From Girardia tigrina (taxonomy: Eukaryota), in NCBI GenBank assembly GCA_001938485.1, contig MQRK01248077.1:1-54058 (forward strand): a stretch of 54,058 bases of DNA, in the 5' to 3' direction. The notes beneath the pieces were generated by a model. That model had not been told where the DNA came from. It ran no database searches and worked only from the letters and a program-made list of their open reading frames with translations. Every line of letters begins with the position of its first letter. Within the stretch, counting starts at the first letter, position 1. Shown piece after piece: positions 5,648 through 52,380 of this stretch. A program made the position numbers and the translations under genes.

Positions 5648-6310
5648 AAACGATATTAAAGCAATTTTATTCGTTACGAATCGTAAGCAGATTCTATATG
5701 AAATCTCACGAGAGAGCGGAAATGCTTTTGGATTTTCTCTATACAATCGGAAAGTCCTCATAATGACCCGTGCAGAGAAGTTGTTGCGCAGTTGGTTGAG
5801 GTTTCTTCGTGGCATATTCAAGAGTACTGATATTCCATGGAAATTGAACCGACATCTGCTGCAGTATAACGCACTCGTGACGAAGATCAATAGCTTGCTC
5901 ACTGCGAAAGTTATTAAATATCTTTCAGAGCAGTCGCAACGCGATGGTGATCGATATTTGGAGTTGTACCGAGATTTTGGATTATATTCAAAAAAGAGAA
6001 TAATCAATACGGTCGACCAAACGGATAAAGAGAACATAGCAAAATTACTCTGTTTTGAGTCAAATAAATTTCCTCCCGGACAGCATACCAATTTCGTGCA
6101 GTATTCCGAAAGAAAGAAAGCTGGTAGTCGAAAAATTTACTTTTTCTCGGCTCCGAACAGTCACATTGCTGAGAATAGCCCATACATCGAAGTAATCGTA
6201 AAAAGGGTATCGAGGTGCTATATTTGTTTAAACTGTGTGAGATTGTTGTCATGCAACTTGGCCGATTTGACAATAAGGAACTATACTCAATCAAAGCAGC
6301 GTCATGATTC
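5648..6310 (+). pseudogene. TRAP1: Intronless fragment of mitochondrial Hsp90 (TRAP1/Hsp75) middle domain, frameshifted
   Basis: FSLYNRKVLIMTRAEKLLRSWLRFLRGIFKSTDIPWKLNRHLLQ..IAKLLCFES..KIYFFSAPNSHIAENSPYIE, continuing after a frameshift as GIEVLYLF. No N-terminal ATPase domain. Confidence 0.85.
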
Positions 6311-6387
6311 TTCAAATTTTAGTTCAGTCGATTATTCAAACAAATTATCCATCAGTAAGAGTGAAATTCTTTCTCCGGGAATCCTAA

Positions 6388-6759
6388 TTGGAAAACGTTA
6401 TCGAAGAGAATTTTATCGATTGCGGTATAAAAGATGTCGCGAAAGTTCGATTGAGACCGAACATTTCGACATTGAATTTACACTATAATTCATTCAGTGT
6501 TATCAGAGGATTGGATAATCTGAGTAACTTGAAGCATCTGGATTTTTCGTCCAATGCGATCACGAAAATTAGCGGTCTCGATTCACTGATTCATTTGAGA
6601 ACGTTAAATTTATCGGCAAATCGAATAAAAAGTTTGGAAGGATTATCTCAATTGCGACAATTGGTTAAATTAAGTGAATCGTATAATGAGATTAGTGATC
6701 TAATGGGACTTAATGAAGTCGCCAATACTCGCGGACACCCTTTGGCGTCATTTATATAA
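6388..6759 (+). pseudogene. SDS22-type leucine-rich-repeat fragment, LRRCC1-like N-terminus
   Basis: Tandem LxxLxLxxNxIxxIxGL repeats (ISTLNLHYNSFSVIRGLDNLSNLKHLDFSSNAITKISGLDSL...). Truncated and intronless. Confidence 0.75.
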
Positions 6760-7112
6760 TTAAAATAAAATAATTAGGTTAACTTTTGAAAAAGTAAAAA
6801 GAAAAAAAATCCTTAACAAAACCATGAGACACTCATTAACTTAAATAAGGATAATAAACACAAACGAATGACCAACCAAAAACACATTAATATTTAAATT
6901 TATTCTATGCTCTTAAATTGATGGGTTCCCAAAACCACATACACTGTAGAAATTATTTTTCATAGTTAAGACGAGTATTAAGTGGTCCCTGATATTATTT
7001 TCGTTTTATGGGTATAGTCAGAGATTTTATCGGTCATTTAATTTTAGATTATTTACAATTATTCTTTGAAAATTACAATTAACTTTGTGATCGTTTCCCA
7101 CCAATAATTACT

Positions 7113-48568: not shown

Positions 48569-51559
48569 TAAGGAATTTTAAATGAAATAGATATAGACAT
48601 TCTAAGGTTGGAAGCAGTAAACTAGTTTAAAATTTCTTAAATTATATGAATTCTTTACATTCAAATGTAAAATCCATAGTACAATTAGACTTTTAAACAT
48701 TTTGATCTTTTGATAGAATGATAATCATTTTAAAACTTGAATCTAAAGAAAAAAAATCTTTTGCTGGATCGCTATAAACTTAAGCTATTGAAAAAACATT
48801 CCTCTTATATTGTCCTCCGAAACTCAACATTCTTCAAACATCAATTGTTCAACATCTTCACGATCTTAGAAAAGTCAATGGGTACTGACAAGATGTATCT
48901 TATGAATTTATTAATTTAGGAGCTGAATGACGTGTAAACTCATTCGAAATTGCTGCAACATATGTGTGATGACCGTTTTATTAGAATTGTTACACGTGAA
49001 GAAACGTGGATATATTTTAACAATCCAGATAAACAAAATCAGTGATTTGACACCAGAAAATAGTGCAGCGGTAGTAAATCGTGATCAATTATCAAAAGAC
49101 AATTTGTGTATTTTGGAAATTCAGAAAGTGAAATTCACTTGAAAATATTTTCAGATAGTCAAATGATAAACCAACCAAGTTTTGATCCATCGAAAGCGTG
49201 ATCTTCTGCAGGAAGATCACGTGAAATCACCAGACAAACCCAAGAAAGAAAAAAAATTTTCAGCCATTGAACTTCTTCTACACACAGCTTATGGTACAGA
49301 ACTTGTGTCATCAACTTTCACATTTCCCGTTCCATTGCTCACTTCTTTTTGAGACCGCTACTTCAACAATCAATGCAAGTCGAAAATGGGTAGCGGGTAC
49401 CTTTTTGCTTCTAAAAAAGAATGGTATAGACCAACTCCTTATAAATGAATTCAAAATGTTCGCAGAGTTAACGTTATAGTGTTGATGCGGTGCTGCGATG
49501 TTGGTTGGAGAGGGGGGTCTCTGGATCGGTAACAAAATGTAACAAAATCAATTTCACCACTAGAAGGGGCCTCGGCAATGCTAGAATGATGGTATCGGAC
49601 GATTTTTAAATTTCAACTTGATAACATGATTCAATAAAGGTTGCTGATTTATTTGCAACATTTTTTCATTTTATTAATCAACAATTTTTTTCATGAAAAA
49701 AATTCTTTTTAAGATTTATTGTTCTAATTCACTACTGTAAGGGTTGCTTGTAAATGATGTATTATATGATGAAATGTATGGTGCTGAGTATTTTGTCTCT
49801 CCCAAAAATAATTGCCAACCGTTAACTAATTAAAATTAAATTACAAAAAAAATTCGATTATAATTTACAAAAATCGAATTAATTTAAAAAAATATTAAAT
49901 TACATAATTTGTTTTACTGAGCTATTTTAAGAATTTGGTTTGGTAGTTATTTTAAATTTGAATGAAATGCAGAAGAAAATTACAGAATTTTTTGTATTAA
50001 ATAAATCCTTTGGAAATAGTATTTCATCTTCTCCTAACAACTACGTTTACAATCATTTCAACACAAATACAAATTAATTTTTACAGCACAAAAAATCTTT
50101 TAATTCAATAATTTCAACAATTTTCACTCCATTCTCAAATCAAAACCTAACTGTCAAAACATTTATGTCTACAAAGAACAACAGTTCACTTTAACGATCA
50201 GAAATTCGAACACAATTATCTACCTAAGAGACTTGCACCAGTAAAAACTTACATTAATTTTATCATATTATCATGAATGCAACCGCAACGTAATGGTTTT
50301 GAATTAACAACAATCATTACGTAGGAGTTGTTATTTTTACAAAAAAAAATTTATTATTAAGTATTATTATTTTTAACTTTTTGTACAATAAATGTCACAG
50401 TGATATACAAAATGACGGCATAGTTACAAAAATTTTGATCCAAATGTAAAGTAATTTCATTGATTTCGTTCGAGGTAATTGATTCTGAATTAAATTTCAC
50501 TTAACAACATTATTTTTACTTTGTTTCTGTGTAGTGTTTGATTGTTGATTGAGTAAGAGATTTCAAGAATCATGTTCATCATCAAAATTTTTTCAAGGCC
50601 AATAGAGTTCAGTCATTGTTTTGTGAAAAATTTCAATTCTTTGCGGCGATGTGTTGTCTTGTGTCTCGTGACTATTCGGGGCTTGTTCAGAGTCGATAAT
50701 AATAGTAGTAAGGCCGAAAGTGATAGAGAAAATCGCGAAAAACATTCGAATAAATCATCCTCGAAAGCCAACTCGAGTAGCGTGTCTACTGCAAACGATA
50801 AAGAAAATTCTTTCGTTAAAATCCCGACGACAATCATCTTCAAACAAGCGATTTAAATGACTCGCCAAAATATCTGTGAATGCTCATCAAATATCGTCAG
50901 AAATGTTTTACAATTTCAACACTGCACATTACAACAATAATAATAATCAAAGACGCTTTCAAAATTGATTCTGTATATAAATCAATATTATTACAAATAT
51001 GATCTATCAATCTTCAATTGTATAAATTCTGAATTATGCAAGTGCTCTGTCAATTGTGCTTTGACCTGAATTGTGCAAGTGTCTGCACGATCGATATCAG
51101 CAAATTAATTGTTTTGTGCTCATTGTTTGAGATAAGATTTTCTGTGTTTTGTTCAAGAGAAAGTGCGTTTGGTTTGCCAAATATTTTTTAAATCATTATT
51201 TTTCGGAAAGAAAATACTTGCAATTTCTAAATTATTTTTTTAGAATTTTTTCTAGAATAAAGGTAGAAACTGGTTTTTTTCAGTGAAAATTGAATTTATC
51301 AGTTGATTCGTTTTTGCCAAATCAGGAAAAACTAATTTTTATTTTGAATTTGTAAGTGATTACAATTATCAATTAGAGTTGATTTTGTTTAAATAAAATA
51401 AAAAAGATGGTTTTGATTGGCGCGAAAACGATTATTGTTGTTGATATAATTTTTTTTGAAAATATATCTTTTGAGTGGAGATTACGAGTTGTCAATTTAT
51501 TGATCATTCTTTTCGAAATTGATTTTAAAGAAATAAAAAACTGGTTTATAACATTCTAT

Positions 51560-52150
51560 GTCGATCTATTAAATCTTTTCGGACTGTAAATAGAAAAACG
51601 AAGCACTATTGATTCGTGCAACGACATATTACCGAATAATATTAAGAAAATCCCCGAATTTAATGTGGAAAATAATTCCAAAGAATTGGAAAAGAATTTA
51701 AATATGATTAATCGAAAAAATATGAAATGCGTTTTTTTTTGGAAAAACATCAAATGGGAAAAGTGCCGTGATCAATGCAATGCTTGGAGAAAAAGTGCTT
51801 CCGTCCAGCAAGGGCCGCATTATATCCTGTTTCGTGAGTGTTGAGGGTTCCAACAATCTCAATGAGCATTTTACTGATTCTGTCCGTCAGAATCACGAAA
51901 TACAGCAACTTCAGTCCTTAGCCAATGAGCAAAAGAAGGATTCGTGTCAAATTAATGATCTTGTCCGTGTGTATTGGCCGAGACATAAATGTCGCTTGTT
52001 GGAGAATGATCTGGAAATATTCGACAGTCCAGGTGTTGATTATACGAAGGAGAACGATAAGTGGATCGATAAGTATTGCGAAGATGCGGACGTATTTGTG
52101 TTGGTGTTGGATTGTACCTCAACACTCAATCAAACAGAGAGAGATTTTCC
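51560..52150 (+). pseudogene. MFN: Intronless mitofusin (Marf/Fzo) GTPase-domain fragment
   Basis: RKNMKCVFF/GKTSNGKSAVINAMLGEKVLPS..CFVSVEG..LVRVYWP..CRLL..DSPGVD..WIDKYCEDADVFVLV. Frameshift in the poly-T at about 51735. Confidence 0.9.
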
Positions 52151-52214
52151 TAAACAATTATCAGCAATTTATCGCAGAAATATCGAAGAATTAGCCGTAT
52201 TAATAACAGTCACT

Positions 52215-52380
52215 CTGAAACTCGATATCATCAGTGGCGTGGCCGATGAACAGACTCGTATTAGAAATGTCAGAAAATTTATGCCAGCTAAAAACGCGAT
52301 ACGATCCGGGATTTTTGGGACGAGGAATTGGAGAATCGAATTCGATCAGCAAGAAAGACGGGAGAACCCCCTGATCGGGC
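52215..52380 (+). pseudogene. NDUFS4: NDUFS4 fragment fused in frame to the mitofusin fragment
   Basis: LDIISGVADEQTRIRNVRKFMPAKNAIRSG..WRIEFDQQERRENPLIG. Confidence 0.88.

Follow-up and report, generated by a model that had tools for sequence, protein, structure and literature searches.

The genome of the planarian Girardia tigrina contains a stretch of 54,058 nt (contig MQRK01248077.1 of assembly GCA_001938485.1; hereafter the window) in which an intron-rich lectin gene is accompanied by nine pieces of host genes without introns, about 3.8 kb altogether: TRAP1, mitofusin, MOCS3, eIF2B-alpha, a leucine-rich-repeat (LRR) gene, a Kv channel, NDUFS4, a basic helix-loop-helix (bHLH) gene, and an unnamed coding piece. 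How did these pieces come to be free of introns, and were they captured through RNA or as DNA? We favour, with a probability of roughly 0.6, that they are chimeric retrocopies generated by a reverse transcriptase switching between spliced host mRNAs and then multiplied as repeats; that an RNA phase of some kind took part in their origin is, overall, very probable. At least four separate sense-oriented chimeras can be recognized, here called units A, D, E, and F.

The clearest trace of a lost intron is found in unit A, which reads on the plus strand as a Kv T1-domain piece, a structured 180-nt module, a TRAP1 piece (5647-6364), and the 5′ end of the LRR gene (6366-6750). We matched this unit and the lectin gene to contigs of four public sequencing runs, two of DNA (X1 and X2) and two that we label as RNA (X3 and X4), a label that is a guess supported by the intron skipping seen in the lectin. 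The TRAP1 piece, about 88% alike to mRNA-like contigs, is colinear with them from 5647 to 6364 and with a solved TRAP1 structure over 194 residues. In X4, the high-depth contig 26 stops after GAG GT at window position 6216, 20 letters behind 6197, and contig 29 begins at 6213 (AG GTG), the two sharing a 4-letter overlap on AG|GT, a 4-mer that starts at only 2 of the 718 positions of the piece. Such a break is what an assembly should show where transcripts with and without one intron diverge, and a second break, in X3 at 5902/5904, where a one-base gap corresponds to a plain variant, indicates that such contigs do break at forks. Both the cargo and three DNA records among the matches listed (7 and 8 of X1, 16 of X2) traverse 6214/6215 without an intron. 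We infer from these sequences that the parent TRAP1 gene would carry an intron at 6214/6215, precisely missing from the cargo; we take this position to be an exon boundary of human TRAP1 as well. A 1-nt gap at 5822 occurs in both RNA runs and in none of the DNA contigs, at summed depths of 1369 and 5532, a hint that the parent DNA is not among the contigs covering 5822.

The remaining pieces are consistent with this picture. In addition to TRAP1, the mitofusin, MOCS3, LRR, Kv, and NDUFS4 pieces are colinear with homologues or mRNA-like contigs, with no insertion of intron size; for the eIF2B-alpha and bHLH pieces the call is made from profile matches. The initial annotation had described four fragments without introns, and all four are borne out: TRAP1, with a length of 718 bp rather than about 660 bp; MOCS3, colinear with its homologues with one frameshift; mitofusin, colinear over 51735-52166, where the alignments to two of the three homologues shown have a single gap residue in 145; and eIF2B-alpha, whose gene identity is weaker. 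The first frame of the latter falls in the Atlas IF-2B alpha cluster (0.91, recognition under the 2300 mark) and the second matches Pfam IF-2B (E=0.043, 86 residues on 82 profile positions), and the piece gave no PDB match; its AlphaFold model, with a predicted local distance difference test (pLDDT) score of 45, was too poor and was not used. Homologue searches revealed no close parent for MOCS3 (best 57%) or mitofusin (best 52%). The LRR piece, presumably of an LRRCC1-like gene, is 64% identical to P0295 from residue 6-10, and 2.7-kb RNA contigs are colinear with it over 6432-6750 with 17 differences. Assuming 2-4 introns per kb and 25% single-exon genes, the probability of finding zero introns in nine pieces is 8e-3 to 4e-4.

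The gene that suggested the contrast encodes an F-type lectin with a PAN domain (2538-3482, minus strand; PAN and galactose-binding F5/F8-type Pfam matches). It has, as had been claimed, five introns in 945 bp (3385-3430, 3217-3273, 3059-3105, 2873-2909, and 2726-2766, of 46, 57, 47, 37, and 41 nt, all GT-AG), that is, 7.0 introns per kb for a coding sequence of 717 nt, and its depth is single-copy in both DNA runs (31-69 in X1, 62-245 in X2). RNA-labelled contigs back four of the five, all those that could be assessed: intron 2726-2766 is skipped by contigs of X3 and X4, intron 3217-3273 has zero depth in X3, and an X4 contig agrees with intron 3059-3105 by record arithmetic. The fourth intron (2873-2909) is spliced in an X3 contig and retained in an X4 contig. 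A single secreted lectin with 7 introns per kb is, nevertheless, a poor yardstick for intron density genome-wide; in Schmidtea mediterranea, the consulted part of PMC4978528 gives 75% of coding genes as multiexonic, with short introns centred on 57 bp.

The way in which the pieces are joined also points to RNA. All six junctions are in sense (P 0.016) and the three testable coding junctions are all in frame (P 0.037), both values being post hoc and assuming independence. MOCS3 continues into NDUFS4 in a single open frame, and so does mitofusin; pieces are truncated at their 3′ side, and the junctions have no poly(A) run. In unit A, the LRR piece starts at its initiator codon 1 nt behind the end of TRAP1, in frame once position 6368, where other copies have G, is considered. 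Contigs span this junction in both DNA runs (rows 6368 and 6375), so it is real and no assembly artefact. Unit E reads on the minus strand as bHLH (41060-41256; Pfam HLH E=6e-5), promoter-like DNA, a MOCS3 5′ piece from its ATG (40022-40746), the unnamed piece (39890-40021), and NDUFS4 with a GC-rich tail (39560-39830). The unnamed piece lies in the same frame between MOCS3 and NDUFS4, is recognized by its open frame only, and resembles what we take to be an APC11 N-terminus, for which Pfam and PDB gave no support. Unit F, on the plus strand, consists of an N-terminal GTPase piece of mitofusin (51420-52190, a span that includes an E2F-type site at 51420-51427) followed in frame by NDUFS4 and again a GC-rich tail (52197-52574). 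A 50-N assembly gap within MOCS3 (40200-40249) is flanked on both sides by an identical 76-bp copy (40124-40325) and, judged from the letters, appears to be a scaffolding overlap artefact.

The proposal that many pieces are 5′ ends of coding sequences holds for MOCS3 and LRR, whose homologues start at the same place, and, from domain position or ATG, for eIF2B-alpha, mitofusin, and Kv; it fails for TRAP1, which comes from mid-gene. Three of the genes (TRAP1, mitofusin, and NDUFS4) are indeed mitochondrial, although this is a weak excess, noted after the fact (P 0.008-0.05 at an assumed background of 5-10%). Multiplication as repeats can be followed in unit A, the only one of the four units covered by our copy-number data, using summed contig depth relative to the lectin as a rough guide only: TRAP1 pieces are present in 12-47 copies, LRR pieces in 70-340, the structured module in 140-1100, and the TRAP1/LRR junction in 3-25. 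Rearranged and deleted versions of the unit A joints are present, and the left edge of the unit shows in X1 as a jump in depth, with 120 in bin 3608-3758 against about 10,000 in bin 3759-3909.

Which enzyme could have made these chimeras is suggested by unit D, the only unit with Gypsy sequence on both sides, namely a long terminal repeat (LTR) to the left and a pol fragment to the right, both in the same orientation. In plus-strand order, the unit comprises the eIF2B-alpha 5′ piece (29580-30210, one frameshift), a weak, diverged copy of the GC-rich tail (30263-30348; nhmmer E=0.52, below inclusion), and then Gypsy pol. Directly to its left lies a Gypsy 3′ LTR (28938 to about 29398, plus strand; 81% match to 17692-18198) with a purine tract ahead of it, and directly behind its tail a Gypsy reverse transcriptase/RNase H fragment (30350-30750, plus strand; Pfam RT_RNaseH_2 E=6e-11). 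Three LTR copies of one Gypsy family (11613-11888, 17692-18198, and 28938-29398) are 80-83% alike, and behind the copy at 17692 come a primer-binding-like site and gag. A 67-bp AT-rich stretch ahead of both eIF2B-alpha and mitofusin (29419-29481 and 51342-51404, about 73% alike; score 49 versus 38 for the best shuffle), with a GCGC-type motif behind each copy, possibly represents a 5′ part that units D and F have in common. We propose that a retroelement reverse transcriptase, perhaps that of a Gypsy LTR element given the surroundings of unit D, would switch template between spliced host mRNAs, and that the chimeric products would then amplify as repeats. Copying would proceed from the tail toward the 5′ end of each mRNA before the enzyme jumps to the next one, which would explain both the bias toward 5′ ends and the start of the LRR piece at its initiator codon.

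Several observations weigh against this reading. Among the 12 DNA records listed on TRAP1, out of a set with 18,747 more, none has an insertion of intron size (largest gap total 19), and thus none represents an intron-bearing parent; with 84-92% likeness to the window, those listed resemble sister copies. The AG|GT fork concerns one site in one run (X4), X3 reads through it, and the contig pattern would also arise if an insertion had duplicated 4 bp in a very young paralogue. At 1 intron per kb the lack of introns would be unremarkable (P 0.07), and the count is biased, since pieces with introns escape detection more easily. The window has only two E2F-type sites, which lie just upstream of the MOCS3 and mitofusin coding pieces, and four of its seven CCAAT matches lie 240-280 bp ahead of the MOCS3 ATG; mRNA should not carry such promoter motifs. 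An EXTL3 C-terminal piece (43185-43415, within 43185-43489, minus strand) sits behind a candidate 74-nt GT-AG intron and starts at its AG splice acceptor. Finally, no LTR pair (direct repeats) enclosing a unit was found in the window, where nested insertions may hide ends. The promoter-like DNA upstream of MOCS3 (40858-41025) comprises an E2F-type site at 40858 and two palindromic CCAAT boxes (40985-41025), motif names that we assign presumptively; across the whole window neither motif is enriched and only their position is notable. Self-inverted stretches occur at 30897-31048 and 40956-41047, the second containing both CCAAT palindromes. The promoter motifs and the EXTL3 acceptor imply that not every piece here derives from mature mRNA, and some promoter-bearing heads, such as that of MOCS3, were likely joined through a DNA step.

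The same motifs fit better with a two-step route, in which genomic DNA with its promoter entered a non-autonomous retroelement by capture or by read-through (5′ transduction) and its introns were spliced from the element transcript in the next round. This route, which still includes an RNA phase without the parent mRNA being the direct template, also accounts for the lost TRAP1 intron, would let an orphan acceptor such as that of EXTL3 survive splicing, and would explain the multi-copy state by repeated mobilisation. We nonetheless consider it unlikely, since it requires repeated insertions into housekeeping exons or repeated DNA captures that were all in sense, the LRR piece has at most 1 nt ahead of its initiator codon, and antisense, intron-bearing cargo was not recognised in the window. 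Alternatively, pure DNA capture by Pack-TIR elements, Helitrons, or template switching during replication could have drawn on intervals natively free of introns, the lectin being merely intron-rich. MOCS3 is a single-exon gene in some animals, and DNA capture would accommodate the promoter motifs and the EXTL3 acceptor. The share of single-exon genes in Schmidtea (25%, in the part of PMC4978528 consulted) and the ability of Helitrons and Pack elements to take several gene fragments (PMC6431247 and PMC8277862, likewise consulted in part) also speak for it, but it leaves unexplained why transcript contigs of the parental TRAP1 fork at AG|GT and why all six junctions are in sense, and neither an in-register target duplication nor a CTRR end directly behind the E, F, or 5400-module hairpins is present. 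We therefore regard it as quite unlikely. The RNA or cDNA phase advanced in the initial annotation is supported by the intron-free pieces, their sense orientation, and the AG|GT break, whereas the contrast with a DNA transposon, on which its paradox was built, falls away.

That contrast came from viewing the pieces as cargo of one element with DNA-transposon-like ends. The GC-rich arms of units E and F (39570 and 52562) are inverted to each other, and these two NDUFS4 and tail blocks could be taken as the ends of a 13-kb cut-and-paste transposon that carries intronless cargo as cDNA. However, the arms, which include NDUFS4, are only 77.5% alike over 227 aligned bases, about 117 bp of internal sequence sets them apart, no target duplication in register was found at the E and F tails (best 3 bp), each arm terminates a separate sense cargo on the 3′ side, and the weak third copy in unit D has no partner, which together make this explanation highly improbable. 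No such ends enclose the pieces, and the supposed paradox of cDNA inside a DNA transposon disappears with them; the element with true inverted ends lies inside the Kv piece. On sequence grounds, we read the blocks as two copies in opposite orientation. Their NDUFS4 parts differ at 8, 8, and 13 sites in the three codon positions, differences that look neutral, and the zero stops in five cargo cores are no evidence of selection, as the spans were chosen to be stop-free. A 6-bp hairpin is present in both tails. Behind the tail hairpins, CTRR was absent from the 80-90 nt scanned in E, F, and the 5400 module; in D it does occur, but no nearer than some 50 nt downstream, where the Gypsy piece already lies. 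As for the terminal hammerhead ribozyme that marks Penelope-like/Terminon capture, we detected no core pattern near modules or tails and no Rfam ribozyme at E<=1, and a viral scan with the tail motif gave 0 matches. A Gypsy pol behind the tail of unit E was considered and is not supported among the matches listed. More speculatively, and in our view doubtfully, the chimeric retrocopies could represent a planarian family of non-autonomous retroelements without LTRs, with NDUFS4 and the GC-rich tail in common, that would capture in frame the 5′ end of one housekeeping mRNA after another and so produce thousands of multi-gene fusion open reading frames across the genome, in-frame joins being favoured for keeping the element RNA stable.

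The element with true inverted ends is a TG...CA-type AT-rich insertion of 935 bp (4237-5171), the only one seen in the window that combines inverted ends, here short and imperfect, with a target duplication, of 5 bp; it is nested within the cargo and carries none itself. By a rough copy ratio it numbers roughly 4,000-16,000 copies, and contigs with loose ends pile up at its borders, 96 and 106 of them before 4237 and 58 behind 5171. It may be a Ginger-type miniature inverted-repeat transposable element or a solo LTR. Repeats at 41689-41887 and 43867-44068, tried as Kv promoter copies, match its right end and were rejected as such. The Kv piece that it interrupts (4170-5403, namely about 4170-4236 and 5172-5403, plus strand; Pfam BTB_2 E=7e-10, Kv4 in PDB) has a reading frame extending left of 4237 and is preceded by an AT-rich multi-copy leader (3760-4170, left edge approximate, placed by the X1 depth jump). 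The module between Kv and TRAP1 (5400-5580, plus strand) is a non-coding, multi-hairpin sequence with fold z-scores of -4.4 (5480-5590) and -2.3 (5400-5580), present in hundreds of copies with differing neighbours; it matched no Rfam family and could be a short interspersed nuclear element or an unrecognised planarian non-coding RNA. Metagenome scans with this module and with the end of the 4237-5171 element returned 0 loci.

The window as a whole is AT-rich animal DNA crowded with decayed hAT, MULE, pogo-like, mariner, and Gypsy elements, those at 6930-9210, 14269-14592, 15294-16458, and 20560-21850 comprising hAT (BED finger and dimerisation domain), pogo-like DDE, MULE, and mariner (with terminal inverted repeats) sequences. 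An isolated fragment of 18S ribosomal RNA (rRNA) with abrupt flanks (48155-48594, minus strand; Rfam RF01960) may itself be a reverse-transcribed insert; it is identical at 33 of 34 bases to an S. mediterranea probe (supplement 1 of PMC6884822) in a region deviating from the Rfam consensus, in a comparison limited to that flatworm. On the strength of this match we take the host to be a triclad planarian and discard the myxozoan, dicyemid, or orthonectid host entertained before. Further coding-like stretches that lack a convincing Pfam match (100-330, 850-1100, 12762-13466, 19975-20376, 42500-43150, 46900-48100, and 50500-50900) may be additional host-gene pieces, with or without introns; an Atlas search with 42717-42986 gave no result.

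How do these units compare with known systems? Products of long interspersed nuclear elements (LINEs) usually lose mRNA sequence at 5′ and keep the 3′ end together with poly(A), and Pack- and Helitron-type elements are biased toward gene 5′ ends and promoters. The LINE processed-pseudogene pattern does not appear here, the pieces being 3′-truncated with 5′ ends retained; the likeness to LINE-made chimeric retrogenes, as far as PMC13174262 and PMC2104539 were consulted, lies in the direct fusion of different cellular RNAs, with an rRNA fragment and a structured module also present here. With Pack-TIR, Pack-MULE, and Helitron capture the units share multi-copy host gene fragments (consulted parts of PMC8277862 and PMC6431247), but paired inverted repeats with a target duplication around the cargo and a CTRR end were not found in the units, and there is evidence for a lost intron. 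The closest likeness in kind is to retrocopies made by LTR-mediated template switching, exemplified by maize Bs1 and the mouse four-gene ‘Super’ retrocopy (Tan et al. 2016, PMC5131818, in the part consulted): partial sense pieces of several parental mRNAs, more truncated at 3′ than at 5′, without poly(A), and re-amplified, which depth ratios indicate for unit A. In contrast with them, the units show neither an enclosing LTR pair nor a primer-binding site, share NDUFS4 and a GC-rich tail, bear promoter motifs on some heads, and number at least four in 54 kb. We describe them as resembling LTR-mediated retrocopies and do not class them as such because of the missing LTR pair.

A literature search that lacked most subscription journals found no report of such units in flatworms. 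The process seems to be of a known kind, RNA-level gene shuffling, in a dense and multi-gene form: the examples on record, from flies, fish, mammals, and maize, are for the most part isolated ones, whereas here at least four multi-gene units from nine parents occupy 54 kb of a planarian genome, one of them in tens to hundreds of copies. Were this genome-wide, it would offer a large test set for how reverse transcriptases choose and join mRNAs, and would be a source of host-gene PIWI-interacting RNAs and of false gene models in a group used as a model of regeneration. Dugesiid planarians also harbour the giant Gypsy elements Burro/GYPSM1, which, in the parts of PMC6431247 consulted, fuse host domains (MATH, BIR, ankyrin, and BCL2-like) in one frame; Burro is autonomous and longer than 30 kb, whereas the units described here measure 1-3 kb, are decayed, and lack gag-pol. 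If such chimeras occur throughout the genome, they would provide a plausible route by which Burro elements came by their host domains.

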